From a virus: DNA of 64,000 nt. Below, one piece after another: positions 14,558 to 45,444 of the stretch. Location of the stretch: the UHGV virus genome UHGV-0134778; one strand, 5' to 3'. Made by a program: the position numbers and the translations under genes. The stretch's first letter is position 1, and every line of letters starts with the position of its first letter. The notes under the pieces were generated by a model. The model saw only the letters and a list, made by a program, of their open reading frames with translations, had not been told where the DNA came from and made no database searches.

Positions 14558-14577
14558 CCACACATCATTTGGAGAAT

Positions 14578-14679
14578 ATGGGATACACAATGAAAACATT
14601 GTCAGAGGTTTTGGTGGTGATCCTGATGATCATTACGTCCATAGTGGCTGTTGCCGGAATACTCACGGGTGGAACATGA
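14578..14679 (+). CDS. micro-protein, hydrophobic (33 aa)
   Basis: ATG 14578 is 21 nt after the -10 of promoter 14529-14557 and preceded by GGAG; VLVVILMIITSIVAVAGIL is transmembrane-like. Confidence 0.3.
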   Translation: MGYTMKTLSEVLVVILMIITSIVAVAGILTGGT

Positions 14680-15225: not shown

Positions 15226-15350
15226 CACACAATTAGTTGCCCGGCTAAAGTGCTGGAAGCACCCATAACATCTTCCAACTAAATTTCCTACCAACACAGT
15301 TACTTACCCACCACACATGACTGTTTGCTTGTTTAGTGAGCAGTCATCCC

Positions 15351-15378
15351 TTGACATTCTTGCCTATCTTGATAAAAT
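15351..15378 (+). promoter_or_regulatory. sigma70-type promoter reading into non-coding DNA
   Basis: TTGACA (15351-15356), 16 nt, TAAAAT (15373-15378); no ORF with an RBS in the next ~300 nt. Confidence 0.45.
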
Positions 15379-16671: not shown

Positions 16672-16720
16672 TGACACTTTTGCCACTTTTGACACTTTTA
16701 CCTTTGACACAATATGACAC
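16672..16720. repeat. cluster of four TGACAC boxes
   Basis: TGACAC at 16672, 16690, 16705 and 16715, embedded in repeated CACTTTTGACAC words. Confidence 0.5.
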
Positions 16721-16750
16721 AATAACGGCTGTTACTATTCCATATCTCAC

Positions 16751-16805
16751 TGTTTACGCATAGACTGTTTACGCCTGAATAGTTTACGCCCAAACTGTTT
16801 ACACA
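16751..16805. repeat. four iteron-like direct repeats (C/A)TGTTTAC(G/A)C at 14-16 bp spacing
   Basis: TGTTTACGC at 16751 and 16767, AGTTTACGC at 16781, TGTTTACAC at 16797. Further copies of CTGTTTACG at 16446 and 17267, and inverted at about 16590. Confidence 0.6.
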
Positions 16806-16815
16806 GAGATGATGA

Positions 16816-17109
16816 GCCATGCCATTCGTTTGCATGAAAACAATTAACAAGATAACAATTAACAAGTTAATAATCTTTCGCTGGCTATGCCAGGTGACTA
16901 GGTCACCCCTTCGGGCGTTTATATGACATAATATAAAAGCAGGGCAACTATTAGAAGATCTATAGTTGCCTTGCTTGTTATGTCATGATTAACTAAATAC
17001 AAGGCAACTATGATCTGAGTAATAGATTGCAGAAAAACTATCACGGGGGTGATGGTTACTGCTTTTATATTATGTCGCGACTCCGTCGCGCCATGCCATT
17101 CGTTTGCAT
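16816..17109. repeat. 20-bp direct repeat pair flanking a nested inverted-repeat structure
   Basis: GCCATGCCATTCGTTTGCAT at 16816-16835 and 17090-17109. Inside: 18-bp perfect inverted repeat GACATAATATAAAAGCAG (16926-16943 / 17059-17076) and four copies of GGCAACTAT/ATAGTTGCC. Confidence 0.65.
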
Positions 17110-17722
17110 AGTTGCCTTATTGTTACAGGTAAAATAATTACATTATTAATTATTTCTTATCTTTCTCTTAGTCATCTAATGATTCCAGTCAGTATAGTAA
17201 TGTACAGTAAACATTAGACGACTAAAGATTTCTCTGTTTATGATAACTCATCGTGATAATTTCGGGCTGTTTACGAAAAATGTTGACACCTGAGCTGATT
17301 TATGTTATGCAGTCTACACGAATAATTATTTTATGCAGGTATTGACTATTCCGTTATTCTGTGGTTGGAATAAATACTTTGCAGGCTATAGAATGGCGTG
17401 CGTACGTGAATTCTGAGATCTGGCGGCTATAGTTATACTCGATTTTTCGCGTAGAACACGCTTTAGATGCTGTGTAAGTGTATGACTTATAAAGATTTTT
17501 AGTTGTTGACAAGATATTGGAGATGTGCATCAGGTTAAAATTTGTGCAATAGCGGCATTACGTGCACTTTTGGGAGAGAAAACGGGTAAAAATGGACTTG
17601 CTACCACACAATGAAAAATTATGCAATAGTTATTTTCCATGTATATTTGTACAGTATGTGGGATTGATGGCTAGTCAATTATTCCACTTGCCAGGTAGGG
17701 CCGTTTATGGTAGGAGAAGAGC

Positions 17723-17750
17723 AGACAAAAAGAAAGGGGCCTAAGCCCCT
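17723..17750 (-). terminator. intrinsic terminator closing the leftward gene block
   Basis: Minus strand AGGGGC-TTAG-GCCCCT followed by TTCTTTTTGTCT; lies 20 nt past the stop of 17770..18189. Confidence 0.7.
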
Positions 17751-17769
17751 TGATAATTCAGTTAAAAAA

Positions 17770-18189
17770 TTATAATGATTCGTATATTTCAAAAATCCGA
17801 TTTGCCAGGTCGTTACGGTAGCTGAATTTTTCCTCACGTTTGATCATAAGATCTTTATAGCCGTACTCTTTAAGCACTTCATTAACTTTATGGCGGCATA
17901 CTTTCATATTATCCTGCGCGTCACCAATAAATCTGTTGCTATGGTGCATGGCTTTAATTTCTTCTTCCAGGACCAGGGCAACTATGCGGACCGGATCAAG
18001 CTGATAGGCGGTAACATCCATGCGGCATTGTAAACGGCTTTTTACGTCTGCCACCGGATATACTGCAACCTCTTCCCCGTCAACATTGACAATAATTAGT
18101 TTACCATCGATTTCGAATCCTTTCGCCGCCGGACCGTGACAAAAAGCGTTATCAAAGCTATATGCCGGATTATTAGATTTAATGTTCAT
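17770..18189 (-). CDS. hypothetical protein
   Basis: 139 aa. First gene upstream of the minus-strand terminator at 17723-17750; promoter 18239-18267 and RBS AAGAGG upstream. Confidence 0.55.
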   Translation of the reverse strand: MNIKSNNPAYSFDNAFCHGPAAKGFEIDGKLIIVNVDGEEVAVYPVADVKSRLQCRMDVTAYQLDPVRIVALVLEEEIKAMHHSNRFIGDAQDNMKVCRHKVNEVLKEYGYKDLMIKREEKFSYRNDLANRIFEIYESL

Positions 18190-18238
18190 GGTGTTTTTAC
18201 CTCTTAGTTAATTTTCTTACAACTTCCCTTCAAAAAAG

Positions 18239-18267
18239 AATATAGCAAAACTGCCGATCCCTGTCAA
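18239..18267 (-). promoter_or_regulatory. sigma70-type promoter
   Basis: Minus strand TTGACA (plus 18262-18267), 17 nt, TATATT (plus 18239-18244). Confidence 0.55.
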
Positions 18268-18333
18268 CCAGGGATAGCGTAATTTTTATGTGATCAAGGG
18301 GCTTTATTGCCCCTGACCATGTAACTTGTTGTA

Positions 18334-18597
18334 TTATTTGTTGCTCATCCAGTTTTCCCAAGCTGCCTGATAATCTGCCTCACTACGGCGGATCTCTTCT
18401 TGCTCTTCAAGGCGGATCTCTTCTTCCAGGTACCCCAAGATGTCAGCCTTTTTAGTCTGGCGTAGCATCCAGTCATCTTTTTTGCGAGTGAAGATCTTAT
18501 AAGCTTTCTCGCAAACCTCTTTTTTGCTACCTTTCTGGACTTCAAGAACACGATAAGCCATATATTGAACTAATTTGAGCTGATCAAGACGTTTCAT
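18334..18597 (-). CDS. hypothetical protein
   Basis: 87 aa; leader contains hairpin GGGCCAAAAGGCCC and RBS AAAGAGG. Confidence 0.5.
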   Translation of the reverse strand: MKRLDQLKLVQYMAYRVLEVQKGSKKEVCEKAYKIFTRKKDDWMLRQTKKADILGYLEEEIRLEEQEEIRRSEADYQAAWENWMSNK

Positions 18598-18657
18598 GAT
18601 GTTTACCTCTTTGTGCGGTTCTGATTAGTGGGCCTTTTGGCCCGTGTCATTATCTTA

Positions 18658-18930
18658 TTACTTATGGCGGCAGAATTCAAGCGTTTTTAATTGATAATCT
18701 TCCTCAGCTTGGAGTACGACCGCCTCGATCATTTCGTTGGCATTGTTAAAGCCATAACCTTTAGCGAACTCATCCGCGCCACCTTCGTGATCATGTTCTG
18801 CGTTCATCGCTTCCACAAAATGGAATTCCAAATTGTTGAGGTAGGGGCTTGATGTTCCGTCCTCTTTTTCGATGAGATCCCAAATAGCATTAAAACGTGA
18901 TTCGACTTCTTGATTAATCCAGCTTGACAT
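18658..18930 (-). CDS. hypothetical acidic protein
   Basis: 90 aa; promoter 18985-19013, leader hairpin, RBS AGGAGAGAGG. Confidence 0.5.
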   Translation of the reverse strand: MSSWINQEVESRFNAIWDLIEKEDGTSSPYLNNLEFHFVEAMNAEHDHEGGADEFAKGYGFNNANEMIEAVVLQAEEDYQLKTLEFCRHK

Positions 18931-18984
18931 AGTGTTTTCCTCTCTCCTGGTTGTTGTGTGGGCACTTTTGCCCCTTCAAGATAA

Positions 18985-19013
18985 ATGTTACCTCACCCCA
19001 TGGCAGATGTCAA
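18985..19013 (-). promoter_or_regulatory. sigma70-type promoter
   Basis: Minus strand TTGACA (19008-19013), 17 nt, TAACAT (18985-18990). Confidence 0.45.
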
Positions 19014-19044
19014 CGGTTTTTATAGTTCTTATATGACAGGCAGG

Positions 19045-19061
19045 CCCGGTGATTGTCTCCC
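19045..19061 (-). repeat. 17-nt motif GGGAGACAA(C/T)CACCGGG, copy a (minus orientation)
   Basis: Plus strand reads CCCGGTGATTGTCTCCC; downstream of the minus-strand promoter 19090-19118. Confidence 0.5.
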
Positions 19062-19089
19062 CCTGTTCCCAAGTGCCGCCCGTTTAATA

Positions 19090-19118
19090 AGAATAGCAAA
19101 AGGGGCCGAACAAGTCAA
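19090..19118 (-). promoter_or_regulatory. sigma70-type promoter followed by the 17-nt motif
   Basis: Minus strand TTGACT (19113-19118), 17 nt, TATTCT (19090-19095); motif copy at 19045-19061 lies 28 nt downstream of the -10. Confidence 0.45.
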
Positions 19119-19147
19119 CCCCAAAATCAGTACCAAAACACTTTTAT

Positions 19148-19459
19148 TTATACGGTCCGATCATTGGCCTTTGTCCAGGACCTGGCGATCCGTTTCCCGG
19201 TCACCTGGAACGGAGGCTGCATTGTGTGTAATGAGTCCAGAGTAAGGGAGGACCGTTTACGGCGTATCTTCAGGATCGCTAACGTATTGTCCATCTCACG
19301 GCCAGGTCCTGGGCGGTATGGTGTGCCTCCAGCGTTAAGGTTGATGATCTCATGTATTGAGATCCGGCGTTGTTTTGCTTCCGCATCTTTGAAGATAGCC
19401 AGCGGAGGCGCTATGCGTTGCCGATACCAATCTAAAACGGTTGGCGTAATAGCGATCAT
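19148..19459 (-). CDS. hypothetical protein
   Basis: 103 aa; co-directional with neighbours and coupled to 19456..19647; preferred over the opposite-strand ORF 19053..19508. Confidence 0.4.
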   Translation of the reverse strand: MIAITPTVLDWYRQRIAPPLAIFKDAEAKQRRISIHEIINLNAGGTPYRPGPGREMDNTLAILKIRRKRSSLTLDSLHTMQPPFQVTGKRIARSWTKANDRTV

Positions 19460-19647
19460 ATTTTACCCCCTATGTAGTCCGGTCGGTTTTTCTCTGTCAT
19501 ACGCTTAAGCAATTCTTGCATGTTGCTTATGGCTTGTAGTGTATCCTCTTCAAGGGATGAATCAAGATAATCAGGATCATTCTTCACCTTGCAATGATTA
19601 TGATAACGCAGCACCGCCAGTACTTTTTTAACTTCTTCTGCTGTCAT
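19456..19647 (-). CDS. hypothetical protein
   Basis: 63 aa. Confidence 0.45.
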   Translation of the reverse strand: MTAEEVKKVLAVLRYHNHCKVKNDPDYLDSSLEEDTLQAISNMQELLKRMTEKNRPDYIGGKI

Positions 19648-19655
19648 TATTCCAC

Positions 19656-19790
19656 CTAAAACAATGAGTTAATATATAACATTAGATCGCTGACCACCAG
19701 GACAACACTGATCAGCACATGCCTAACCATAAAGGGAAAGATCGCCAACATTGCCACCACGATCCCCATGGTAATAATTATCTTTCTCAT
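19656..19790 (-). CDS. micro-protein, hydrophobic (44 aa)
   Basis: ATG immediately after the stop of 19793..20077; sequence is almost entirely hydrophobic. Confidence 0.3.
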   Translation of the reverse strand: MRKIIITMGIVVAMLAIFPFMVRHVLISVVLVVSDLMLYINSLF

Positions 19791-19792
19791 GG

Positions 19793-20077
19793 TTAACGGT
19801 TCACGTAAGTTTTCCCGTTTACGGTTATCGGCAGATCCTCCAGGTCTGGATCTTCTTTAAGGTCGCGAGCAAGTTCACCGCACCGGACGCCCTCGAATCC
19901 GTAGTACTCTGTCGTTCCGTCCTTAAAAGTTTTTGCGGCAAGGCATAAGCGATAAGTAACACCGATTTGATTGACGGCATGGATATCAGTTAGATCTACC
20001 TCTTTTGCCAGCTCTTTGGCCATTACAGGCGCATTAAGTCCAATAACCAAGGCAACCACTGCGATCATCTTTTTCAT
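19793..20077 (-). CDS. secreted/periplasmic hypothetical protein
   Basis: N-terminal signal-peptide-like MKKMIAVVALVIGLNAPVMA; RBS AGAGAATAG-like. Confidence 0.5.
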   Translation of the reverse strand: MKKMIAVVALVIGLNAPVMAKELAKEVDLTDIHAVNQIGVTYRLCLAAKTFKDGTTEYYGFEGVRCGELARDLKEDPDLEDLPITVNGKTYVNR

Positions 20078-20166
20078 GTTTTCTATTCTCTTTCTGTTGC
20101 GTTTAAGGCGGCGACAACCGCCTGTTTATGCTTTGTCGGTTAATAGGGCGTACGGTATAGATTAAA

Positions 20167-20391
20167 CTATGCTGTACGCTCAACTATGACAACGGCTTGA
20201 GGGATCTCACCTTCCACCACTATCAAGGCTTTTTTCTGCGTAATAGATATCTTTACCCGCTTCAGCGTGGCGGTAAAGTCTTTCATTTCGTCACGTGGTG
20301 TTTTAGTGCAATGCCAGATCTCAGGCTTACCTATTTGCAAGCCGCGTAAAAATTCCGTTTTTCCTGTTTTGTTCGTGATCATTTGTTTCAC
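20167..20391 (-). CDS. hypothetical protein
   Basis: 74-aa ORF. Confidence 0.45.
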   Translation of the reverse strand: MKQMITNKTGKTEFLRGLQIGKPEIWHCTKTPRDEMKDFTATLKRVKISITQKKALIVVEGEIPQAVVIVERTA

Positions 20392-20392
20392 C

Positions 20393-20497
20393 TTACCCGA
20401 TACCGTTGGAAGACAAGATCATATTAGCCATGGTTGCAATCAGGCCAATACCCAGGGCAATAACCAGGATCACCGCATCAATTAATTTCTGTTTCAT
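20393..20497 (-). CDS. micro-protein, hydrophobic (34 aa)
   Basis: RBS AAGAGGA 7 nt upstream; VILVIALGIGLIATMANMIL is a membrane segment. Confidence 0.3.
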   Translation of the reverse strand: MKQKLIDAVILVIALGIGLIATMANMILSSNGIG

Positions 20498-20587
20498 CTT
20501 GTTTTCCTCTTCTTGTTCCAGGTGGCGGACCATTCCGCCGCCTTATGTATTATGCTTTGTTAGATGGTTGTTTGTTGTCAAACTGTT

Positions 20588-20767
20588 TTAACGATAATCA
20601 TCGTACGCTTTATTAACCTGGCGAATATAACATTCAAAAGCCAGATCAATAGATTTATATTCACGGATATATTCACCATAGGAAACTACATACATTTCTA
20701 TAGCCTCCTCATATGCGAGGAGAATAGAATCCAAGCCTACGATCTCAGTCTTTGCAATAATAGCCAT
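20588..20767 (-). CDS. hypothetical protein (59 aa)
   Basis: Read manually; promoter 20817-20847, leader hairpin GGGGCAACAAGCCCC and RBS AAAGAGGA precede the ATG. Below the track cutoff. Confidence 0.4.
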   Translation of the reverse strand: MAIIAKTEIVGLDSILLAYEEAIEMYVVSYGEYIREYKSIDLAFECYIRQVNKAYDDYR

Positions 20768-20816
20768 GATTTTTTATCCTCTTTGTGGTTGGTGGGGCTT
20801 GTTGCCCCCTTTGATT

Positions 20817-20847
20817 TATATACTACAGTCTTATAGGGTCATGTCAA
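20817..20847 (-). promoter_or_regulatory. sigma70-type promoter
   Basis: Minus strand TTGACA (20842-20847) overlapping the upstream stop codon, 16-19 nt, TAGTAT/TATATA. Confidence 0.5.
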
Positions 20848-21077
20848 CTATTTTCAAAAAATTTTTCTGCTGTGATATTTTTCCCGGTAGGGTTCGCTAC
20901 TTTTAAAATTCTATCATGCACCGGACGCCCGAAAGAATAAGATCCGTATACAGTAAACCAATAATCACCGTCAGGCTGTACTATTACCGCCGCATATGGT
21001 ACGCCTTTTTCATTATTGCTCACAAAATAGATCACATTGCCATTAATAGCCTCAGCGCGTTTAATTTGTTCCATCAT
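20844..21077 (-). CDS. hypothetical protein
   Basis: 77 aa; RBS AAGAGAGG. Confidence 0.5.
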   Translation of the reverse strand: MMEQIKRAEAINGNVIYFVSNNEKGVPYAAVIVQPDGDYWFTVYGSYSFGRPVHDRILKVANPTGKNITAEKFFENS

Positions 21078-30205: not shown

Positions 30206-30400
30206 TTACAGGTTACTCCAGTATAATCGGCATTTACATTTTGGGCAATGAGGTTCTTTTATGTAATAGCCGTCAGTCTTTGGAACACTTTTTGGTGCAG
30301 TTTTAAGATTGTACCGAGTAAAACACCGGAAGCATGTTACCTCTCCGACCTGTTGATCGTTGATCCACTCACCAGAGTAAAGCTCTTTCTTGTTTCTCAT
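30206..30400 (-). CDS. small zinc-ribbon-like protein
   Basis: CxxC...CxxC pattern (CFRCF...CPKCKC); start at the ATG after GGAGAG. Confidence 0.4.
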   Translation of the reverse strand: MRNKKELYSGEWINDQQVGEVTCFRCFTRYNLKTAPKSVPKTDGYYIKEPHCPKCKCRLYWSNL

Positions 30401-30626: not shown

Positions 30627-30655
30627 ACTATACCACCTCAAACTCCGGCTGTCAA
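30627..30655 (-). promoter_or_regulatory. sigma70-type promoter
   Basis: Minus strand TTGACA (30650-30655), 17 nt, TATAGT (30627-30632). Confidence 0.55.
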
Positions 30656-31110
30656 CACTCTTTGTACTCCACCACGATAATATCTATATCAAAAGTGGCA
30701 AGGTTAATAACGTCCTCCACGTGTCCCCACTTCAAGCCGCCTATGCCGCACCCAATCTTAGGTATGTAGAATGGTAAAGTCGATCTCTTGAATATCTCAT
30801 TTACTCGCTCAAAGCCTTTCAGAATTGAGAAATACTCAGCATTAGGTCCTGGGTAGAACTGAGTGTATAGATTGATTCCGTATACAATACCTTTCGGAGA
30901 TAAGTGCTCCCACCGAGAGAACGCTCCTAGCTTACTTAGGCAACCGTAGGTAGTCGTTTTGTCAGCCGCCAATGCTTGAGGGAACTCACGGGAAATTTGT
31001 TTTGCTACACCCTTACCCATTGTGTGGAAGCAGTTACAACCGTGGATCAGGTGACCAGCACCGCTCTTAAAAAGGGAGATTAGATCTCCCTCTACAGTAT
31101 CAATAATCAC
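30652..31110 (-). CDS. Macro-domain (ADP-ribose binding/processing) protein
   Basis: IVIIDTVEGDL..LIHGCNCF..GKGVAKQI...IPKIGCGIGG follows the Macro-domain motif order (GDIT-like strand, NAAN-like, GGGV-like, G[IV][FY]G-like). Start is uncertain: GTG at 31108-31110, ATG at 31189-31191 or track start 31209. Confidence 0.55.
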   Translation of the reverse strand: MIIDTVEGDLISLFKSGAGHLIHGCNCFHTMGKGVAKQISREFPQALAADKTTTYGCLSKLGAFSRWEHLSPKGIVYGINLYTQFYPGPNAEYFSILKGFERVNEIFKRSTLPFYIPKIGCGIGGLKWGHVEDVINLATFDIDIIVVEYKEC

Positions 31111-31525
31111 GATATGCCAGCTCCTCTTCCACAATTTCAAAAAACTCAGTCCAGCACTGTGGCATATTAGAGTTACCGAAGTGGCTTTCATAGTAAAGGT
31201 TCTCACCACTCGGAAGATAGAAATCTGTTACCTCGTAGAATCCACAATCGTCGCACTCACCTTCTTCAAACTTGGCCTCAACCTTAATACCGAGGAAGGT
31301 GAAAAGTTTATGAATATCTTCAGTTTCGAACTCCCAGTGAATGTTGTTTTCCGCATCGGTGTAGAACTGGATCAGCAGACCATTGTCCAGTTTACCAAAA
31401 TACTCTGTGAAGTAACTCCCTTCCCAGAAATCTTTATGACAAATAATATCCATGCGTTTGCCCATAATAATGGTGTGAGCGTTTTGGGCATCGTCACGAA
31501 TCAGTTTTGGCATTTCATAGATCAT
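31100..31525 (-). CDS. hypothetical acidic protein
   Basis: 141-aa ORF. Confidence 0.5.
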   Translation of the reverse strand: MIYEMPKLIRDDAQNAHTIIMGKRMDIICHKDFWEGSYFTEYFGKLDNGLLIQFYTDAENNIHWEFETEDIHKLFTFLGIKVEAKFEEGECDDCGFYEVTDFYLPSGENLYYESHFGNSNMPQCWTEFFEIVEEELAYRDY

Positions 31526-31593: not shown

Positions 31594-31791
31594 TTACGCA
31601 GGAATTGCTTCAAACAGGCCGTTATCGATACCATCCTTCAAGTAAAGATTATACTCTATGTCAGTATCTGTGTAAAGGGCAGCATCTAGCATTCTATCTG
31701 TGAGTCCATCCATTGGGTGGAGAAACCACCACCCACGCCAGTCAAAGTAACAACCTGGTGCATCTTCTCTCACACGGATTCGATAAATCAT
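31594..31791 (-). CDS. hypothetical protein
   Basis: 65 aa; promoter 31863-31891 and RBS AGGAGG. Confidence 0.45.
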   Translation of the reverse strand: MIYRIRVREDAPGCYFDWRGWWFLHPMDGLTDRMLDAALYTDTDIEYNLYLKDGIDNGLFEAIPA

Positions 31792-32304: not shown

Positions 32305-32366
32305 TTTTCAGGCCTCTTTATACAAAAATGCCCCACCCTTTCGGGCAGGGCTATGTTAACTAGATG

Positions 32367-36453: not shown

Positions 36454-36734
36454 TGATCTGCCTCCTTCTTGTTGAGCCGGAACACTGCAATAATGACATT
36501 TCCAAGATGCAGTGTCAAATCATTTCCCAGATACCACAGCATCCCACGGTCATCTTTAATGAAAGGGTAACAATCTGGTGCCTTCCAGACATTGTACACT
36601 TTCCCAACCTGAAAGAAATCAGGCCCTGTTGGGATTTTGGTGCCAGGCCACACTTGAGATACCTGAACACACTCCACCTGCATAATAACAGGAATAGTCA
36701 TGGATGTAAATGTTTTTGTCGGTTCTACTACCAT
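36450..36734 (-). CDS. small protein, tandem paralogue set
   Basis: DDRGMLWYLGNDL pattern; start at the ATG after GAGAGGAG (the track start 36824 would overlap the polymerase gene by 41 nt). Confidence 0.4.
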   Translation of the reverse strand: MVVEPTKTFTSMTIPVIMQVECVQVSQVWPGTKIPTGPDFFQVGKVYNVWKAPDCYPFIKDDRGMLWYLGNDLTLHLGNVIIAVFRLNKKEADQ

Positions 36735-36783
36735 AAAAGTCTCCTCTCTGTCTAACAACACTTCCGTGTGTTGATAGTTTACA

Positions 36784-39561
36784 TTAGTGACAATCACCCC
36801 AGTTACGACCACACAAGTATTCACCTGTGATCTGGAACGGAACGCCCATCATTTTAGAAGCTTGCCAGAAGCAATGTACCACCATTTCGCCCACAGGGCT
36901 CCAGATAAGTTCAAGCTTTCCGTCATCGTTCAAGATAGGATCGTATACCGTATTTCCATCCCTGTCAACTACTTCGTTTCCTTCTTCATCCTTGCGTGCC
37001 TTTTTGTACTTATGACCGTCGAACACATGAAGTTTAGCCTCCTGCTGGGACTTAAATGTTTCCAGCTCTTCAATTGTGTCGAAGGTGTATACAGTTTTAT
37101 ACTTAGGTGTGTCAGGGACTTGAAGTTGATATTCGTCATGGTAATAAATAATACGACGAACACCCTCATCATACCATCCACGCTTCACCATCTGGTGGTG
37201 CATGAGTATCCCAACTAAGTCACACAATGATGCACCGCCATTTTGCTGATATGCATTAAGCAAAGAGTGTTTAGATCGGGTCCAAATGGCATGACCGTCA
37301 AAAGAGTAGATAAATTTCTTACCTGTTGCTTCCCAGAATTTCTCCAGATCCTCTTTACGACCCTTAAGACCTGGGTTGGCATCCCAGAGAGCGTCAATTA
37401 CTCTCTGTCCCAGTTCTGGAGAGATATCTAGCATATCTGCAACTTTATCTTTTTGTGCCCCGTACATAACCCCATACGTGACAGGCTTACCATCGTTACG
37501 AGACACCTCCCTGCCTGCTACTTTTGTATATGCCTCAGCATTGTTTTGGTGCGCATCTCCGTTACTTACAACATCATAATACAGACCGTTGTCAAACTCA
37601 AAGGCACCCCAGGCCCCGATGAGCTGCTCTAAGTTGGACCCGTCAATACCGATCTCAAAGTATCCTGGAGGAACACCCCACAGACTACGCATCTCTTTAC
37701 CCATAACCACTTTAGGAGATGGTTTAGGCATGTTTGCACAAATGCTGTGTTTCTGTCTGGAAGTGTTTGTTAATCCAGAACTTTTAGCAGGAAGCTTATG
37801 GTCAATCTTCAAACGTGGATGATTAAGAAGACCAGTATCAACCTTATCCTCCTTGATTGGATCAAGGACCGATCTACGGTTTCGCAAGGATAACCACAAG
37901 ACGATATCTTTAGCCATCTCTCCGTTCAACTTTTCAAGATTCGGACATAGGTGTCCAAACGTATCTTTCAGTTGCGGAGAAGTAATAAGCGCTCTGGCTT
38001 TTCTACGTATCTTCCCAAACACTTCCTTTTTAATCCTTTCTGAGTTAGGGAAGCTTCGGAACTTGTGCACGGTTGTCTGAAACTTAGCATCAGTTTTGTT
38101 CCAGAAGTTGATAATTAGGTCACAATACTCTGACTCTAAAAGCTCGTCCATATATGCATATACTCGTGCATCAACATCAGCATCAGGCAGAGCTTTCTTC
38201 TTGCTGTCCTTGGTTACATCTTTAGTTCTCCACATTGTTGGGAGCCAACCAGCGCTGATCAAATATCGCTTAATATCGTCCTGGTTGCTGATCTTCATAG
38301 GTATCTTGCAGTCAGGCATCCGCTTCTGCTGCAGATCACTTATTGCCTGATCCATTAGTTCTTTAGGTAAAGGATGTGGTGTAGAGGTTCCTTTGATATA
38401 CCCCCTCAAGAAATCAGCCATCTTATCTGGGTCTTTACAGCCCATCTCTTCACACCATTTTATCCCCATTTTGCTGACATCCCCTGTGGAGGTAAATGCT
38501 CGCTTAGGAGGAGCTTTGAACTCTAAAGCGCTCATGTCCACAGGATAGCCAAGCTTGTCTTTTAACCATTTCCAACCATTATTGGAGATTGTCCCATCCT
38601 GGTTAAACGGCTTTTCAGGGAACTTAGGCCGCTGAGACATTGATAACTCTTTTAAAGGAAGTTGTGGTTCAACACGATCAGCGATCTCCTTCATCCACGC
38701 ATCGCAGCGGTCACGTAAAGCAATAGCTCCATCTATGTCGAAATACACACCCTGTCGAGCCTGCAGCTCCATCAGGAAATGCTGCAGCATGCCTCGGCGT
38801 AATGCATTCTTCCAGGTAATCTTCTTGAATCCTTTAGGCTTCTCTTTGGCAGGGTCATACATAAAGTTCTGCATGTCAGATTTGCCGTAGAATACACCTT
38901 TTGATTCCGCTACCAACTCTTTCCAGAGCAACTCCTGGATGATAACGTCCTCGAACACACGATCCACATATTTCCACAGCGGAAGCTCACGCCAGTCATC
39001 GATTTGAACTTTCTGGTTACCAAGGGCATAGCCCCATGCCATAAGGCCATGAGGTCCAACAGGCTGCATTTTCTTGGTAACTGGATTGAATACTGCGTCC
39101 GGACAACCTTTTGGCAAAGGGCGGTCAGGCCACAAGATTCGACTCATCGCTAACGTATCAAACAGATTAACCTGGTGGTCGTTGATAGTTCCCATGCATT
39201 TAGGATCACGGAACATATCAAAATGAATACCGGATAATCTTTCCATCAGCATAAAGTCGTAACTGTAGCAGTTATGGCAGTTCAAAGCCGTAGGTGACCA
39301 GTCTGAATTGCCTGTAAGCCAGCCTTCCAACTCTGAAAAATCTGCTATGCGAGCCTCAAAATCTGTATAAAGGGTCTTCTTTGCCAGAATGAAGTTCTTA
39401 GCTTTCTCCACATCCTCTTCAGAGTAGTGTGTGCGGTCATTTAGAGGAAGGAACAGCATAAAACGGTTCTTATTCAGCTCTTTAAACAAACCGCAGTGAT
39501 AATAAAGATCTGGGTCTTCCAGCAAGCCAGAGGCCTCAAAATCGAACGACCACATGCTCAT
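36784..39561 (-). CDS. family A DNA polymerase with 3'-5' exonuclease domain
   Basis: N-terminal Exo I-like FDFEASGL, polymerase motif B-like DGKPVTYGVMYGAQ and motif C IIYYHDEYQ; 925 aa. Confidence 0.9.
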   Translation of the reverse strand: MSMWSFDFEASGLLEDPDLYYHCGLFKELNKNRFMLFLPLNDRTHYSEEDVEKAKNFILAKKTLYTDFEARIADFSELEGWLTGNSDWSPTALNCHNCYSYDFMLMERLSGIHFDMFRDPKCMGTINDHQVNLFDTLAMSRILWPDRPLPKGCPDAVFNPVTKKMQPVGPHGLMAWGYALGNQKVQIDDWRELPLWKYVDRVFEDVIIQELLWKELVAESKGVFYGKSDMQNFMYDPAKEKPKGFKKITWKNALRRGMLQHFLMELQARQGVYFDIDGAIALRDRCDAWMKEIADRVEPQLPLKELSMSQRPKFPEKPFNQDGTISNNGWKWLKDKLGYPVDMSALEFKAPPKRAFTSTGDVSKMGIKWCEEMGCKDPDKMADFLRGYIKGTSTPHPLPKELMDQAISDLQQKRMPDCKIPMKISNQDDIKRYLISAGWLPTMWRTKDVTKDSKKKALPDADVDARVYAYMDELLESEYCDLIINFWNKTDAKFQTTVHKFRSFPNSERIKKEVFGKIRRKARALITSPQLKDTFGHLCPNLEKLNGEMAKDIVLWLSLRNRRSVLDPIKEDKVDTGLLNHPRLKIDHKLPAKSSGLTNTSRQKHSICANMPKPSPKVVMGKEMRSLWGVPPGYFEIGIDGSNLEQLIGAWGAFEFDNGLYYDVVSNGDAHQNNAEAYTKVAGREVSRNDGKPVTYGVMYGAQKDKVADMLDISPELGQRVIDALWDANPGLKGRKEDLEKFWEATGKKFIYSFDGHAIWTRSKHSLLNAYQQNGGASLCDLVGILMHHQMVKRGWYDEGVRRIIYYHDEYQLQVPDTPKYKTVYTFDTIEELETFKSQQEAKLHVFDGHKYKKARKDEEGNEVVDRDGNTVYDPILNDDGKLELIWSPVGEMVVHCFWQASKMMGVPFQITGEYLCGRNWGDCH

Positions 39562-39619
39562 ATACAGTTCTCCTTAAAGGGGAGGCGGTTGTACTACCCC
39601 TCCCACTCTTGGTTAAACA

Positions 39620-41698
39620 TTAAAAAGGTGTTTCGTCGTCTTCAAAACCGGGGACGTGGTTAGAGGACGGATCATCATACTGAGGATCTTCCTGTGTGTC
39701 AACTGGGGTAACAGTAGGAGTTACAACCTTATCAGCCACAACCTTGCCCACAGGTGTTTCCACAACTGCATGATCTTGATCCTCAAACATAGCCTGAGGT
39801 CTCCAAACAACCTCCCCACCTTCTCCGTCTGTAAACATTTGCATTTCTTTATCCCAGTACCAATTGCTGGCATCGTGGAACTTGCCTGTGTGAGGATCCA
39901 TAACTAAAGTGTCCGCAATACCTAGGGTTTTTGCTGGGCGGTTTTTAAGACTTACCAGTCGGACACGTCCACGGGAACGATCCACCATCTCTTCTGCTTC
40001 TACCCCAACAACTACCCAGCTGAGTTGCTCCAATCCGGCACTACCTCGAAGGTTCTCTTTTCGTACAGGGTACCAGAAAGGCAACGGATTCCCATCCTTA
40101 TCCTTAGGAGGTACAATCTCTGTACGTTTCAGGTGAGCAATCACCAGGATAAACACATTAAACTGCTTACAGAACGCGGCTAGTTGAGTCATAGCCATGT
40201 CAAGTTCTTTGCGCTCATCCTTAACATTAAGCCCTGAAATCACCATAGACAAGTGATCCAGCACAATGTAACGGCAGTGATACAGGCACACCATTTGTTT
40301 AAGCTTAGTGATCAGCTCATCCACAGGGATGGAGCCGAAATGCTTGAACACTTTGATTTTTCCGGTCTTGGCCCAAGATTGATGAATCTCAGCGTGCTCC
40401 TGGTCGGTCAGGAACTGACTGGGGTCTTCAACAAACTCTTTAACATCAAACCCCAGCTGGTTAGCGTACAGAGAGTTGATTGCTTCCTCAGGATCCTCTT
40501 CAAGGTGAATCAGACACAGGCGATCATCCTCTTCATAATCATCAGCTTTAGGGCATGTTGGATCCATCAAGTATCTTGCAATGCAGTGTTCCAGCTTCTT
40601 GGCTATAGTTGTTTTACCACCGCCAGATGGGCCTGTTAGCATCATCAAGGTGCCTTTGTGGAGCCCTTTCAGCATCTTCTGCAATTTAGGGAACTCCGCA
40701 CTGATATCCACGCCATTGGAAGTCTTCTTACGAAGAGATTCAATGGAGAAGTCTTCTAAATCAGATACAGCATCAGGCACATATTTGACTGGGTGACGGA
40801 ACATGTTGACAATATCTTCCAGCTTTTTAGCCTTCAGCATGTCACGAATATCTTTTACACCATCGGGATCGTTTACCTCTCCTGGGTATTCCACGTGGTA
40901 AACGTTGTCAGCCATTAAAAATGCTGCGATATTATGTGTGGCTTCAACACCTTTGATAACGTGTTTTTGCTTCTCTACCTCGTTAGCTGCATCGTTGTCC
41001 ATTGCAAGGACCACTGTTCCATAGCTACGGATAAATTTCTCATTGTTCGCAAAAGTGTCTACGGCGTTTGCACACCCGCAGTTAATTCCAACAAAAGGCA
41101 GGCAGGGTTTTCCTGCCAGGTCTCCGCCGTTGATAACTGCATCAATCCCATCTTGAACTTCTTTAGCCCACTGCTTCACCTTCGCTGGGGCTTTAGCATT
41201 GGTGAGAATGCCCTTCACTTGTATCTGATATGCAGCTTGCCATGCTGCAATAACATCACCCTCCCCCTCGCAGACGTTAATCTGTTTACGGTTGTTGGAG
41301 GATGCACACAGCTTTTGACCAAACATCTGAGAGTTGGCCTTTACTATGCCAACAACTGAGAAATGGCCTCTTTGCTCTTTAGGGATTGTCCAGTCACGCT
41401 TTTTAAAGCCGGATAGATTACCGTAGCGGTCGTAATATGGGAAATATGTTGCGGTGACCGTTACCCCGTCTTCCTGAGACAATGCTGATCGCACACCAAA
41501 ATATTGTGCAGCCATCAGTCCGATATTTTGTTGTGGAACAGGGACAATTTTAGTATTTTCTAAAACAGTCTCTACAGTTTCAACCTCTTTTTCATCACGA
41601 TAGTCTCGTTTCACACTTCCCCCACTTTTATACTTAGTTGCTTTCGGGTTTGGCTCACCGAAACGGTTGTATGCAGATGCCATGAATTTACTGCCCAT
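39620..41698 (-). CDS. bifunctional primase-helicase (T7 gp4-like) with acidic C-terminal tail
   Basis: Toprim-like VVLAMDNDAANE, Walker A LTGPSGGGKTT, DnaB-type helicase region; C-terminus ...GFEDDETPF. Confidence 0.85.
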   Translation of the reverse strand: MGSKFMASAYNRFGEPNPKATKYKSGGSVKRDYRDEKEVETVETVLENTKIVPVPQQNIGLMAAQYFGVRSALSQEDGVTVTATYFPYYDRYGNLSGFKKRDWTIPKEQRGHFSVVGIVKANSQMFGQKLCASSNNRKQINVCEGEGDVIAAWQAAYQIQVKGILTNAKAPAKVKQWAKEVQDGIDAVINGGDLAGKPCLPFVGINCGCANAVDTFANNEKFIRSYGTVVLAMDNDAANEVEKQKHVIKGVEATHNIAAFLMADNVYHVEYPGEVNDPDGVKDIRDMLKAKKLEDIVNMFRHPVKYVPDAVSDLEDFSIESLRKKTSNGVDISAEFPKLQKMLKGLHKGTLMMLTGPSGGGKTTIAKKLEHCIARYLMDPTCPKADDYEEDDRLCLIHLEEDPEEAINSLYANQLGFDVKEFVEDPSQFLTDQEHAEIHQSWAKTGKIKVFKHFGSIPVDELITKLKQMVCLYHCRYIVLDHLSMVISGLNVKDERKELDMAMTQLAAFCKQFNVFILVIAHLKRTEIVPPKDKDGNPLPFWYPVRKENLRGSAGLEQLSWVVVGVEAEEMVDRSRGRVRLVSLKNRPAKTLGIADTLVMDPHTGKFHDASNWYWDKEMQMFTDGEGGEVVWRPQAMFEDQDHAVVETPVGKVVADKVVTPTVTPVDTQEDPQYDDPSSNHVPGFEDDETPF

Positions 41699-42482
41699 TA
41701 ATTCTGCTCCTTACTGCAGGCTCGTTTGCTAAGAATACAGCTTTAGCCCAGCCACGTGGTGTGAGGCTTCGAATCATCTTCGTCCTTGCACTCTTTCCAC
41801 CTAGCTTAGCGTGTTGCATAGAATAACCGCTAACCGCATCCACTATTTGCGGGACAGGTTTTGTGGCTGGGATTATAAATCCATTGCCTATCCAACCGCA
41901 AGTTATTTTTGGGTAGGCATCACGTGGAGCTATAAATTCAGGAAACCATGGGTTTACATCATCTTCTGGTAAATAACCGCCATAATCTGAAGGATGAAAA
42001 CGATAATCAGGTTTTCGCCACAGTGTGGACATAACCCCCACAGGGTTCTCTACATGCCACGGGCAATCGTAAATCTCTCCCAACTCTTCTGCAACCCGAG
42101 CATCTTTTACAGCATTAATTTGAATCAGAGGGTCCTTAGCCAGCTTTTTCTTAAAATGTGCAGCGCCTGATACTGCTAGATGCGTGCACGGAGGAAATGC
42201 AAGAATAAAGTCTGGAGCTGGGTACATGCAAAAAGTTTCTTGAGGGAACCACGGGTCAATCCAATAATCCACGTAGTGAATGTTTGGATGATCTGTTATC
42301 ACCTCTGCATAACTGCCATGGTCAGCGCCTTCTGCGTTAAAGCACAGGCACAGATATCCAGCTTTTGCCCAGTCAATGACTGCACCGCCAGATCCGTCAA
42401 ATAGACTCCACACAACACCTTTGTGGTGGTGTTCTTTATAGATAAATTTCAATTTGCTGTCTCCTAATGCAAAAAGCCCCAC
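41688..42482 (-). CDS. small C5-cytosine DNA methyltransferase-like protein
   Basis: Motif I-like LFDGSGG, motif IV-like FPPCTHLAVSG (PC catalytic dipeptide), motif VI-like HVENPVG (ENV). Only 264 aa, so activity and specificity are uncertain. Confidence 0.5.
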   Translation of the reverse strand: MGLFALGDSKLKFIYKEHHHKGVVWSLFDGSGGAVIDWAKAGYLCLCFNAEGADHGSYAEVITDHPNIHYVDYWIDPWFPQETFCMYPAPDFILAFPPCTHLAVSGAAHFKKKLAKDPLIQINAVKDARVAEELGEIYDCPWHVENPVGVMSTLWRKPDYRFHPSDYGGYLPEDDVNPWFPEFIAPRDAYPKITCGWIGNGFIIPATKPVPQIVDAVSGYSMQHAKLGGKSARTKMIRSLTPRGWAKAVFLANEPAVRSRINGQ

Positions 42483-42503
42483 CCTTTCGGGCAGGGCCTA
42501 GTG

Positions 42504-42986
42504 TTAAACCCGGATACCTATTGTATACTCGGTGGATACCAATGTCAAATCTAAATTTAAAATTTCTTGCATCTCATAGTATGCATCCAGGGTGAGATAC
42601 ATTTCCCCATCCTTTTCTACATACTTGTCCAAGTGCTTGAGGCATTTCGGATAACTATCAAGGGCAGCCTTTAGGCACTCAAACTCTGTGCTGTTGATGA
42701 GTCCTTCCATCTTGGCTACCCGTTCTGGGGTAACGATAGCACTGTAGTGAGATTTAGCTTCCTGGATGCAATGGGTCCAAGCATCAACTTTCTCTTCGAA
42801 AAGTCCGAAGAACTTCTTTTTGGTGAGCTTCAGATTCTTTAAGTGCTTAAGCACTCGGTTACCGATCACGGCCACATCACGAAACTTAAGGATCACTTTG
42901 TCGATATCCTCGCGGCCTATTTTCACAAAGCAAGCCTCACACATTTCAGGAGCTGCGTAACCTACTTTCCACATAAAATCTGACAT
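42504..42986 (-). CDS. hypothetical protein
   Basis: 160-aa ORF. Confidence 0.5.
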   Translation of the reverse strand: MSDFMWKVGYAAPEMCEACFVKIGREDIDKVILKFRDVAVIGNRVLKHLKNLKLTKKKFFGLFEEKVDAWTHCIQEAKSHYSAIVTPERVAKMEGLINSTEFECLKAALDSYPKCLKHLDKYVEKDGEMYLTLDAYYEMQEILNLDLTLVSTEYTIGIRV

Positions 42987-42998
42987 AACACTATCCCC

Positions 42999-43397
42999 TT
43001 ATTCTTCCTGAAAAGCAACGATATCATATGAACTTGCAGACGATCCTGGTGAAGAATGACTCCAGTCTAGGTCATCAGAGTAGTCAGCGTACTGTGCACC
43101 ACTACGTAGTTTATATTTTACCCACTTACCTGGTGCAGGGTTTTCACCACCTTCCCATACTTCCCAGCCTTCTGGCAGGCCGTCCTGGGGACAGTCATCC
43201 ACCTCACTAATAATCTTAGGGTTTGGCACCAAGATCCCTGCAGGCTCTTCCTTCCGGATAAGTGTCCACACAACGTAGGTGTCTGAGCAGGCGCATGATA
43301 GCAAAGTATATCCACTATTCAGAACTTCTGCAAGCTCTTTTTCAGCATCTTCCAATTTGGTTAAGTGGTATTGGATAACCTTCACACCTGTAATCAT
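42999..43397 (-). CDS. hypothetical protein
   Basis: 132-aa ORF. Confidence 0.5.
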   Translation of the reverse strand: MITGVKVIQYHLTKLEDAEKELAEVLNSGYTLLSCACSDTYVVWTLIRKEEPAGILVPNPKIISEVDDCPQDGLPEGWEVWEGGENPAPGKWVKYKLRSGAQYADYSDDLDWSHSSPGSSASSYDIVAFQEE

Positions 43398-43741
43398 CAG
43401 AAACCTCCCACTTCTTCAGCAAATGCAGCTGCTGTCGTCGCTGCATCCAGATAGGACTCTAGTTCACGGGCTGCACGTTTGTAAATTGAGTGGCGCATAT
43501 CGTTTGGCAGTTTGTGGAAGTCCACCTCTTCACCGTTGTGGTAAACATGCACATCGGTAATTTGTCTAAATCCGTAATAGTCAACATCAGAATCACGGCA
43601 CTCTGGGTCTGGCAACTGGACAACTGCCTGAGCTTCCACAGTGAACATCTCGTCAAGTTCGAAATCGATTTCAAAAGTGTATGGTTTATAACGTTTCATC
43701 ATTTGATTGTACTCTTTATTGGTCAGACTTATCTTTCGCAA
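43397..43741 (-). CDS. hypothetical protein
   Basis: 114 aa; coupled to the upstream gene. Confidence 0.5.
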   Translation of the reverse strand: MRKISLTNKEYNQMMKRYKPYTFEIDFELDEMFTVEAQAVVQLPDPECRDSDVDYYGFRQITDVHVYHNGEEVDFHKLPNDMRHSIYKRAARELESYLDAATTAAAFAEEVGGF

Positions 43742-45041
43742 TTAAGGTCGGGGTAAGTTTGTAATAACGGAAGCCACCACCACCTTCCCAGTTTACAGAC
43801 TTAGAAATACCACCTTGATCTTCACCATCGATCACTTTTTCCAAGCGCGGAATAATATGGGTATGACAATGATCACCTAGCTCGATTGAGATCCAACGTC
43901 TTTTCATCTTGTGAGCTACAGCAGCAGTAGTTCCCGAACCACCGAATGAATCCAATACCAAATCGCCTTCTCGCGTACACATTTCGAAAATCCGCTTCAA
44001 AAGCGCTTCTGGTTTTTTCCCATTTTTGAAACTAACGCCGCCTTCATTTGCTATTCCATTCCAACTAATGTCTGTCCAAACATCAGTTATTAGTTCCGCA
44101 GGTTGCATCTCACCGTCAATTTCCAAAAGCCTGTTGGAGTAAAAGACCATTTGCCTACCATTTGCGATATAAAATCCTTCAACATCTTCATTTGGATGTA
44201 CATAAACCTTATCCCTGTCTTTCTTTGACTTCTCGATAGTTTCTTTTCTCTTTATTTTAGCTCCACCGCCAATTGCAACAGATTGAAATACACGTTCTGC
44301 ATTATCAATTGCGAATTGTGCTAATTCATCATCGAATGTATCAGGCAGTTTTTTCTTGGCTTCTTTTGCATCTTTATAGCCATTGGCCTTTGCAAACGCA
44401 TCGGCAATACCGCACCACGTCCAATTTTTATAATGGTCATCCGGGTTTAATAGGTATTTGTTATATCCTGTATCATACCCTTTAGGTATATAGATTTTGT
44501 TAAGCGGTTTCTTGGTGCGATCTTTTGCATATACAAGCAAAAAGTTTGCTGTGGAGAAAACTGTGGCTCCTGTTGCCTTAAATCCCGAAGGAGAATTTGT
44601 GGTCATCGATATGGTATTTAACTGATTTGCACGACCAAAAATCTCGTCCATCAAAACTTTTAAATATGCCATTTCGCAATCATCTAAGTGAACGAATATT
44701 ACCCCATCATCACTTAGAAGATTACGAATTATTTCTAACCTATCCCTCATTAAGCCCAGCCAAATGGAATGCTCCAGGCTATCATCGTAGTGCTCAAAAG
44801 CCCTCCCGGTATTGAATGGTGGGTCTATGTAAACACACTTCACTTTGCCTGCATACTCTTGCTCTATCGCCTTCAATGCTAATAAGTTATCTCCAAAAAT
44901 CAGTTTATTATCAAAAATATCGTTTTCGGTCACTTTCTGGCTGTGGTAAGATTTGCTAGAATCTTCTAACAAAATGTACGGCTCTAACTTTTTGCGCTCG
45001 TTTTTACCTATCCAGGTAAGTTCTAATTTGGTTTTACTCAT
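43716..45041 (-). CDS. beta-class N6-adenine/N4-cytosine DNA methyltransferase (orphan, Type III Mod-like)
   Basis: N-terminal LTWIGK, catalytic motif IV VYIDPPFN ahead of AdoMet motif I VLDSFGGSGTT (beta-class order). No restriction subunit nearby. Confidence 0.8.
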   Translation of the reverse strand: MSKTKLELTWIGKNERKKLEPYILLEDSSKSYHSQKVTENDIFDNKLIFGDNLLALKAIEQEYAGKVKCVYIDPPFNTGRAFEHYDDSLEHSIWLGLMRDRLEIIRNLLSDDGVIFVHLDDCEMAYLKVLMDEIFGRANQLNTISMTTNSPSGFKATGATVFSTANFLLVYAKDRTKKPLNKIYIPKGYDTGYNKYLLNPDDHYKNWTWCGIADAFAKANGYKDAKEAKKKLPDTFDDELAQFAIDNAERVFQSVAIGGGAKIKRKETIEKSKKDRDKVYVHPNEDVEGFYIANGRQMVFYSNRLLEIDGEMQPAELITDVWTDISWNGIANEGGVSFKNGKKPEALLKRIFEMCTREGDLVLDSFGGSGTTAAVAHKMKRRWISIELGDHCHTHIIPRLEKVIDGEDQGGISKSVNWEGGGGFRYYKLTPTLIAKDKSDQ

Positions 45042-45102
45042 CGTTTGGTGCTCTCCTTAGTTTTTGTGGGGAGGGGTGCCTCCCCTTTATACTCACATCT
45101 TA

Positions 45103-45444
45103 CTACTCAAGGTCTTCAGAGTCAAGCTCAAAAAGAATCAAACTGTGCATGCCTGCAGAGAGATTAACACACCCTGCAACAATAAGGGTTTGATAGTAAG
45201 GTTCAGCACCCTCAATATCTTCGTTAAAATCCACAACAAGGTAGTCACCTTTGTTAAAGGTGTATTTGTCCGATGTAAACGCAAAACCTGCCCAGTCCCC
45301 TACTGCAGGATCTTTATCAGTCACCTTTGTTAGCAGTAGATCTTTTTCACGAGATCTTTTAGTAAAATCGTGAATCACAACATCCTTCTCTTCAGAAGTC
45401 GGATTGCCACACACGTAGTTAACGATATTTCTCCACAAACTCAT
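45103..45444 (-). CDS. hypothetical protein
   Basis: 113-aa ORF. Confidence 0.5.
   Translation of the reverse strand: MSLWRNIVNYVCGNPTSEEKDVVIHDFTKRSREKDLLLTKVTDKDPAVGDWAGFAFTSDKYTFNKGDYLVVDFNEDIEGAEPYYQTLIVAGCVNLSAGMHSLILFELDSEDLE

Follow-up and report, generated by a model that had tools for sequence, protein, structure and literature searches.

A stand-alone glutamine-type macrodomain of a Vequintavirus as a probable eraser of ADP-ribose from phage DNA

The macrodomain gene and its start codon

The stretch of viral DNA analyzed here, 64,000 nucleotides (nt) from the UHGV virus genome UHGV-0134778 (hereafter the window), belongs to a Vequintavirus, an rV5-like myophage of E. coli, and carries on its minus strand a small gene encoding a stand-alone macrodomain protein, for which a role in the removal of ADP-ribose from phage DNA is proposed below. 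Across the 3 kb around this gene, over 100 Vequintavirus genomes of ~137 kb show 93–96% identity to the window, and at least 80% of the 3-kb stretch is contained in 116 of the 120 matching phage records, the gene therefore being a stable part of the Vequintavirus genus. In the GenBank records of the relatives it goes under labels as different as “macro domain protein”, which is already present in many of them, “phosphatase”, “O-acetyl-ADP-ribose deacetylase” and “A1pp phosphatase”, with the BASEL phages carrying the label “hypothetical protein”.

The longest open reading frame (ORF) holding the macrodomain, 185 amino acids on the minus strand, opens with a GTG at 31209, ends with the stop at 30652, and includes an in-frame ATG at 31191 and an in-frame GTG at 31110. 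The sequence-only reading, i.e. an earlier note made from the letters of the DNA without database searches, had regarded the choice among these three starts as ambiguous, and all three are indeed in frame; the ambiguity is resolved here to the GTG at 31110, giving a product of 152 amino acids. This start is indicated by the Shine–Dalgarno sequence GAGGAG, which is kept together with the GTG in three relatives, and by the length of the homologues, which measure ~150 amino acids even at identities as low as 35%, with the first residue of T4 Tk.4 falling at the position equivalent to GTG 31110. Consistent with that, the first β-strand of the AlphaFold2 model begins at residue 2 of the 152-residue product, and of the substitutions between 31111 and 31209 that distinguish the window from three relatives, most are synonymous in the frame of the overlapping upstream gene (3 of 5, 5 of 9, and 4 of 6) and most are non-synonymous in the macrodomain frame (1 of 5, 1 of 9, and 1 of 6 synonymous). 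The longer starts at GTG 31209 and ATG 31191 are ruled out by these same four features, namely the position of the Shine–Dalgarno sequence, the homologue length, the fold boundary, and the substitution pattern. Within the body of the gene, 23–27 synonymous and 12–16 non-synonymous changes separate the macrodomain frame from that of the three relatives, a pattern of substitution by which this frame is judged to be under purifying selection.

Table 1. Positions of the macrodomain gene, its predicted active-site segments, and adjoining features, numbered along the window
Feature	Position	Strand	Basis and remarks
Macrodomain coding sequence	30652..31110	-	GTG start at 31110, 152 codons, TGA stop at 30654-30652; same 459-nt coding sequence annotated in relatives
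Shine–Dalgarno sequence GAGGAG	31121..31126	-	10 nt before GTG 31110, within the end of the upstream gene; read from the sequence
Predicted ADP-ribose-binding loop 1, codons His23-Ala36 (HGCNCFHTMGKGVA)	31003..31044	-	Invariant or near-invariant columns; aligned to solved structures
NLYTQ, codons Asn80-Gln84	30859..30873	-	Gln84 at 30861-30859; HMMER and MAFFT alignments concordant
Predicted diphosphate-binding loop 2, codons Pro117-Gly125 (PKIGCGIGG)	30736..30762	-	P117, G120, and G122 invariant
Upstream gene of 141 amino acids, phrog_8157	31100..31525	-	No Pfam match; last 11 nt overlap the macrodomain start
Candidate early sigma-70-type promoter TTTACA-17-TATAAT	31648..31676	-	Consensus match, 11/12; upstream of the two-gene unit
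Candidate sigma-70-type promoter TTGACA-17-TATAGT with TG	30627..30655	-	Consensus match, 11/12; overlaps the macrodomain stop codon

Fold, class, and active site

The sequence-only reading had assigned the product to the Macro-domain family and had named a profile search and a structure prediction as ways of checking this, both of which uphold the assignment. The Pfam Macro profile PF01661 matches at 26.6 bits, above its gathering score of 22 (E = 6.2e-6), with the alignment spanning only profile positions 1-32 of 118, i.e. the N-terminal third; at the level of sequence, such a partial match just above threshold is typical of a divergent subfamily. The protein also matches PHROG 335 at 1.9e-58 and, over the macrodomain part only, the DarG models of NCBIfam and PADLOC at 4.5e-12 and 1.6e-13, respectively. 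The AlphaFold2 model, for which an alignment of 68 phage or metagenome homologues served as the input, shows a three-layer α/β/α macro fold with a predicted local distance difference test score (pLDDT) of 96.3, a predicted template-modeling score (pTM) of 0.91, and template-modeling (TM) scores of 0.78–0.85 to human TARG1.

A Foldseek search of the PDB with this model returned 168 chains at E ≤ 1e-3, the 50 best of which are either macrodomains or designed hydrolases built on macrodomain scaffolds. The top of the list is taken by TARG1, the DarG proteins of T. aquaticus and M. tuberculosis, Poa1p, BT1257, and SCO6735 (TM 0.7–0.85), with ranks 1-19 all belonging to the TARG1/DarG/ALC1-like class and with the macrodomains of alphaviruses and coronaviruses ranked well below it. 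The profile of the family gives the same picture, matching SCO6735 at 2.4e-18, M. tuberculosis DarG at 8.9e-18, BT1257 at 1.7e-17, TARG1 at 2.5e-16, and Poa1p at 1.9e-14, and coronavirus Mac1 at 2e-3 only; none of the MacroD/YmdB-type chains falls below E 0.01. Because of the Foldseek ranking and these E-values, which come from a predicted model and from sequence profiles, the protein is placed in the TARG1/DarG/ALC1-like class (that of SCO6735, and Poa1p-like) and not among MacroD, PARG, or viral Mac1 proteins. The MacroD/YmdB-type annotation “O-acetyl-ADP-ribose deacetylase / RNase III regulator” thus receives no support from the family profile search; PDB entry 5m3i, which bears the label “RNase III inhibitor”, is M. 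tuberculosis DarG. The top hit among the viral structures of BFVD is A0A481YV05 (query TM-score, TMq, 0.93; 37% identity), a Marseillevirus protein annotated as of the SNF2 subfamily, which suggests the same Gln-type macrodomain within an ALC1-like architecture of a giant virus.

Binding of ADP-ribose by the protein is predicted from two invariant glycine-rich loops, loop 1 and loop 2 (Table 1). The invariant Asn26 of loop 1 is the equivalent of N22 of DarG, N23 of AdfM from phage PhiKZ, and N27 of SCO6735, and mutagenesis of the equivalents of this region has been reported (PMC9411070, PMC13309987). Gln84 stands where DarG and TARG1 have their catalytic Lys (K80 and K84, respectively) and equals Gln85 of SCO6735, and by alignment Gly120 and Gly122 correspond to G126 and G128 of SCO6735. 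Gln84 is invariant in 68 of 68 sequences of the alignment used for the model and in 82 of 82 sequences of a set including 80 bacterial homologues, and the same holds for Asn26, Asn80, Gly120, and Gly122. In SCO6735, the substitutions Q85A, N27S, and G128E, which here correspond to Q84, N26, and G122, abolish or strongly reduce the hydrolysis of thymidine-ADP-ribose, and a water-mediated mechanism has been proposed for this enzyme, with the distal ribose brought into position by the Gln (PMC9411070). For the design of mutants this means that a dead mutant of the “K80 type” is not available here and that Q84A or N26A would take its place.

The ability to remove thymidine-linked ADP-ribose from DNA has been described as what unites the macrodomains of the TARG1/DarG/SCO6735 class, and SCO6735 itself, a protein of Streptomyces coelicolor, removes this modification and rescues E. 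coli from DarT (PMC9411070). SCO6735 (PDB 5E3B) is the best match of the family profile and, like the phage protein, is encoded by a stand-alone gene with no DarT partner, has His-x-Cys-Asn in loop 1 and IGCG in loop 2, and carries, as does BT1257 of Bacteroides, a Gln at the position of the catalytic Lys, which makes both of them Gln-type ALC1/TARG1-like macrodomains. The likeness has its limits, in that identity to SCO6735 and BT1257 is only 24–27%, the loop following the Gln is ~6 residues shorter in the phage protein and devoid of Lys (QFYPGPNAEY vs QHGMKTGSKGAPVRY), Thr83 precedes the Gln as in DarG and TARG1, and Gly24 stands in the place of Val25 of SCO6735.

With DarG (T. aquaticus 5M31/5M3E, M. 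tuberculosis 5M3I), the protein has in common the fold (TM ~0.75), the conserved Asn of loop 1, equal loop lengths and, presumably, the substrate, thymidine-ADP-ribose in single-stranded DNA (ssDNA). It differs from DarG in that the catalytic Lys80 (T. aquaticus numbering, after FPT) is replaced by Gln84 and in that the C-terminal DarT-binding domain is missing. The NCBIfam DarG model NF048014, the cutoff of which is 250 bits, is matched at 45.9 bits over positions 3-143 of 338, and the 152-residue protein covers positions 4-141 of 329 in the PADLOC model. By Pfam, no DarT or other toxin domain was found in the 8 neighboring ORFs or in the distant ORF 4814-5359. The protein is thus not a DarG antitoxin, given the score below cutoff and the lack of the C-terminal domain, of the catalytic Lys, and of a DarT neighbor. 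An NADAR partner in the window was likewise considered and rejected, ORF 4814-5359, the equivalent of a “putative glycosidase” of a relative, having no Pfam match.

Predicted function and its alternatives

In a direct comparison, the protein is 39% identical to T4 Tk.4 over residues 1-150 (E = 4e-41), and tblastn finds relatives in ~2,800 phage records, including Tk.4 of RB49 at 65% identity and genes of T4-like phages, adjoining vs, at 39–46%. Both proteins belong to PHROG 335, are stand-alone and ~152–155 residues long, and contain the motifs HGCNC, MG.GVA, NLYTQ, and IG.GIG, and both genes lie among small early-type genes and overlap the gene upstream. They differ in 61% of residues and in gene order, the T4 gene lying between vs and tk.3 and that of the window after the phrog_8157 gene. 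In T4, a transposon screen identified tk.4 as the single gene required on hosts with DarTG2, and its clean deletion sensitizes T4 to DarTG2, the gene having been named adfM (bioRxiv 10.1101/2025.11.20.689424). Judged by its sequence, the gene of the window is the Vequintavirus counterpart of T4 Tk.4 (AdfM).

The sequence-only reading had suggested that the gene could counter a host defense that ADP-ribosylates phage DNA or proteins, a suggestion which, as far as DNA is concerned, gains support from both the membership in the TARG1/DarG/SCO6735 class and the full-length T4 homologue with its DarTG2 phenotype. The protein is here proposed, with a probability of roughly 0.7, to be an early-expressed stand-alone ADP-ribosylglycohydrolase that would reverse the DarT2 modification of thymidine in phage ssDNA. 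In the proposed model, the gene would be transcribed by the host RNA polymerase soon after infection, together with the overlapping upstream gene. Once a DarTG2-type system is triggered, DarT2, as established for this toxin, would ADP-ribosylate the N3 of thymidine in single-stranded phage DNA, causing replication to be blocked. The phage protein would then bind the ADP-ribose via loop 1 (His23-Ala36) and loop 2 (Pro117-Gly125) and, by comparison with its homologues, would hydrolyze the thymine–ribose bond, releasing ADP-ribose and restoring the template. As the conserved residues would have it, catalysis is expected to be of the Gln type described for SCO6735, with Gln84, held by Asn26, positioning the distal ribose for the attack by water, and the Lys80-type chemistry of DarG is probably not used. 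Since the protein has no DarT-binding domain, it would act by repair of the product; direct inhibition of DarT, as shown by SCO6735 in vitro, is possible. Uracil-ADP-ribose in RNA, a substrate common to TARG1, DarG, and SCO6735, may extend the role of the protein. This kind of function is already published for T4, and the Vequintavirus gene adds a member to a recently characterized group of anti-defense enzymes; what is new is modest, namely that its start codon is settled, that its active site is of the Gln type, as in T4 Tk.4 and SCO6735, and that it stands apart from the AdfM of the PhiKZ type.

It has to be noted that several points weigh against this proposal. Enzymes of the class also act on Glu/Asp-linked ADP-ribose of proteins, on uracil-ADP-ribose in RNA, and on small ADP-ribose derivatives (protein substrates: PMC9411070), and the high activity of SCO6735 on DNA has in part been credited to a loop with Lys89 and Lys94 (PMC9411070) that the phage protein does not have. 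The support from T4 Tk.4 is genetic only, its biochemistry being inferred, and at 39% identity the substrate preference of the two proteins could differ. The preprint reporting HIDEN-SEQ included a screen of the Vequintavirus Bas54, and its main text is silent on the macrodomain gene (bioRxiv 10.1101/2025.11.20.689424). Finally, early expression, plausible as it is, rests solely on promoter consensus matches.

A second phage protein, gp104 of the chimallivirus PhiKZ, has independently been named AdfM and strips DarT2 marks from DNA in vitro (PMC13309987). It resembles the protein of the window in being a stand-alone phage macrodomain directed against DarTG2 and in falling within the broad PHROG 335. 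In contrast to it, gp104 is a DarG-proper, Lys-type protein (9.4e-25 to M. tuberculosis DarG) with an FPTK motif that contains Lys78, and it is imported into the phage nucleus; a direct BLASTP comparison of the two yields E = 1e-3 over 20 residues, and their identity in the alignment is 21%. Vequintaviruses are not known to make a phage nucleus. Because gp104 is Lys-type and DarG-proper and has so little in common with the protein of the window, the proteins published as AdfM are assigned, on the strength of their sequences, to two lineages, one with Gln (T4 and Vequintavirus) and one with Lys (PhiKZ). The name AdfM thus spans two lineages with different catalytic residues, which matters for the design of mutants.

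TARG1 (human C6orf130), the top structural match (TMq 0.78; target TM-score, TMt, 0.85), removes thymine- and uracil-linked ADP-ribose (thymine: PMC9411070). Both it and SCO6735, the closest solved relatives, also hydrolyze Glu/Asp-linked ADP-ribosylation of proteins (PMC9411070), which raises the alternative that the phage protein removes mono-ADP-ribose from Glu/Asp residues of host or phage proteins modified by a bacterial defense or by a phage transferase. We consider this very unlikely, as the Lys84/Asp125 dyad of TARG1 is absent from the phage protein (22–24% identity), where Gln84 and, for the Asp of loop 2, a Gly are found, and as the genome of the relative has no annotated ADP-ribosyltransferase. 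The ADP-ribosyltransferases of T4 modify arginine, which macrodomains of this class are not known to reverse, a further point against a protein substrate. Relatives of the DarG type act on DNA only (PMC9411070), which again speaks against a protein.

Another alternative starts from yeast Poa1p, which ranks with the closest structures (6lfr, 6.5e-9) and has the H-x-C-N-C loop of the phage protein in addition to its fold; its active-site residues are represented by the positions mutated in the PDB entries (H23, S30, and F152), and the residue-by-residue comparison extends over the loop, short of the middle and C-terminal parts. Together with the historical annotations “A1pp phosphatase”, “phosphatase”, and “O-acetyl-ADP-ribose deacetylase”, this match would fit a protein that clears small by-products, either ADP-ribose-1''-phosphate (a Poa1p-like “phosphatase”) or O-acetyl-ADP-ribose, arising from NAD-dependent RNA repair or sirtuin reactions of the phage itself. 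NAD-dependent RNA repair modules with Macro domains processing the by-products have been predicted by Iyer et al. (PMC9503650), and the close relative Bas48 has a sirtuin gene adjoining those for an RNA ligase, a polynucleotide kinase, and a phosphoesterase (bas48_0215-0219). The macrodomain gene, however, lies ~53 kb from this sirtuin module and is unlinked to it; the phenotype found for T4 Tk.4 is sensitivity to DarTG2; the invariant residues are those that SCO6735 needs for the hydrolysis of thymidine-ADP-ribose; and the family profile draws in no MacroD/YmdB-type chain at the threshold given above. Clearance of by-products as the main function is therefore regarded as unlikely. The sirtuin-domain and RNA-repair genes of Bas48 (MZ501054 130351-133476) correspond to a region outside the window; they may constitute an NAD-dependent RNA repair module, the ADP-ribose by-products of which may be a second pool of substrates for the macrodomain.

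Proteins of the Tk.4 type also occur in bacteria. Scanning one genome per species, 350 bacterial loci were found, all encoding proteins of ~150 amino acids with HGCNC and N-x-Y-T-Q at 35–44% identity and lying in large chromosomal contigs; stand-alone chromosomal Gln macrodomains occur, e.g., in Ruegeria, Desulfobacter, and Shewanella, and in Ruegeria and Hyphomicrobiaceae the Tk.4-type gene comes after a conserved ORF of 1,100–1,285 amino acids. A survey of the 143 ORFs flanking 80 of these loci returned heterogeneous housekeeping families, with few NADAR (3), NUDIX (2), and Exo_endo_phos (4) proteins, and no DarT among the best 25 of 131 Pfam and the best 25 of 31 PADLOC families. Given the heterogeneous flanks and the lack of DarT among the families listed, the lineage would be an orphan eraser in bacteria too, as has been proposed for SCO6735. 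In 1 of the 80 loci, the macrodomain gene adjoins a ThsB-like TIR gene, which would suit the hydrolysis or sequestration of an ADP-ribose-derived immune signal (gcADPR or His-ADPR of Thoeris) and thereby the blocking of a signaling defense. In line with this, the Macro domain of ThsA binds His-ADPR (PMC13434031), and phage Macro domains, in the view of Iyer et al., are directed chiefly at small derivatives of ADP-ribose (PMC9503650). However, the TIR neighbor is a single case among heterogeneous contexts, no member of the class has been shown to act in this way, and the only genetic phenotype of the family is directed against DarTG2, so that interference with an immune signal appears highly improbable. 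The second suggestion of the sequence-only reading, the processing of signaling molecules derived from nucleotides, gains no support from these results and is not contradicted by them.

Beyond the proposed removal of DarT2 marks, a wider model can be put forward, albeit tentatively and with the odds rather against it. In this model, the Tk.4 and Vequintavirus proteins would be a Gln-type lineage of their own, recruited from stand-alone bacterial macrodomain genes and not from DarG, and mechanistically distinct from the Lys-type AdfM of PhiKZ; they would constitute a toxin-independent eraser of N3-pyrimidine ADP-ribosylation, shielding the ssDNA of the phage, and perhaps also RNA (uracil-ADP-ribose), from several transferases beyond DarT2. 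Two further activities were considered and set aside. Reversal of the ADP-ribosylation of mRNA by CmdT is unlikely, since T4 has Tk.4 and yet is strongly restricted by CmdTAC, and since the adenine mark of CmdT is described as irreversible, and mimicry of the C-terminal domain of DarG of the kind exerted by AdfB is inapplicable, AdfB not being a macrodomain.

The proposed repair of DarT2-modified DNA gives a probable anti-defense function to a gene that is listed as hypothetical or as a “phosphatase” in many Vequintavirus records, those of the BASEL phages included, in a genus that provides candidates for phage therapy and biocontrol. It predicts that phages of the genus resist DarTG2 through the macrodomain gene and that they may remain sensitive to the guanine-specific DarTG1, the latter because, in a published search of the Vequintavirinae, NADAR erasers turned up only in Bas60-62.

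Neighboring genes and further features of the window

The macrodomain gene is preceded by the gene for the 141-residue protein (Table 1), and this pairing is kept in the relatives. The 11-nt overlap makes it probable that the two are co-transcribed and translationally coupled, in agreement with the coupling of GTG 31110 to the upstream gene that had been noted before, and the 141-residue protein may be functionally linked to the macrodomain. The ORFs neighboring the macrodomain gene all fall into PHROGs without a known function, so that the gene context adds nothing on the mechanism. The small minus-strand ORF 30206-30400, two genes downstream of the macrodomain, matches a phage zinc-binding domain (PF23903, 1.6e-22).

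The candidate promoter that overlaps the macrodomain stop codon would serve the small genes downstream and mark the 3' limit of the unit. Between 17000 and 36500, sigma-70-type matches number 68, against 40.8 ± 7.6 expected, with the strong ones almost all on the coding (minus) strand and with perfect 12/12 sites at 30201-30174 and 24336-24309, both on the minus strand; in the replication-gene block from 36500 to 56000 they are not enriched (40 vs 33.3 ± 5.6). Of the placement of the gene in an “early region” by the sequence-only reading, what stands is that early expression is plausible, owing to the density of such matches in the macrodomain block; the timing itself is inferred only.

Among the records matching this part of the window are 16 (MG065658, MG065661, MG065682, and 13 others) called “Campylobacter phage”, with C. 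jejuni as the host. MG065658, MG065661, and MG065682 are ~93% identical to this E. coli Vequintavirus region, and it looks as though either the host label is wrong or the lysates were contaminated.

A scan of the window for tRNAs and a scan against Rfam gave no matches. A G+C-rich hairpin of 22 nt, GCCCTGCCCGAAAGGGTGGGGC, followed by a run of T, occurs twice on the minus strand, at 32330-32351 and 42474-42499, ~10 kb apart, and has the look of an intrinsic terminator used more than once. No ORF of at least 90 amino acids is contained in the ~2.8 kb (14900-17770) where the block of plus-strand genes (up to 14888) gives way to that of the minus strand (17770 onward). This region includes three 15-bp tandem units of GTTTACGC (16752-16802), nested inverted repeats at 16925-17125, and an exact 20-nt direct repeat at 16816 and 17090, and it has the lowest G+C fraction, 0.36–0.39, of the 9 kb that were profiled (12000-21000). 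In Bas54, according to the HIDEN-SEQ preprint, no transposon insertions were tolerated in the corresponding intergenic stretch (bioRxiv 10.1101/2025.11.20.689424), and 14900-17770 is regarded as a candidate for an origin or for a region of divergent control.

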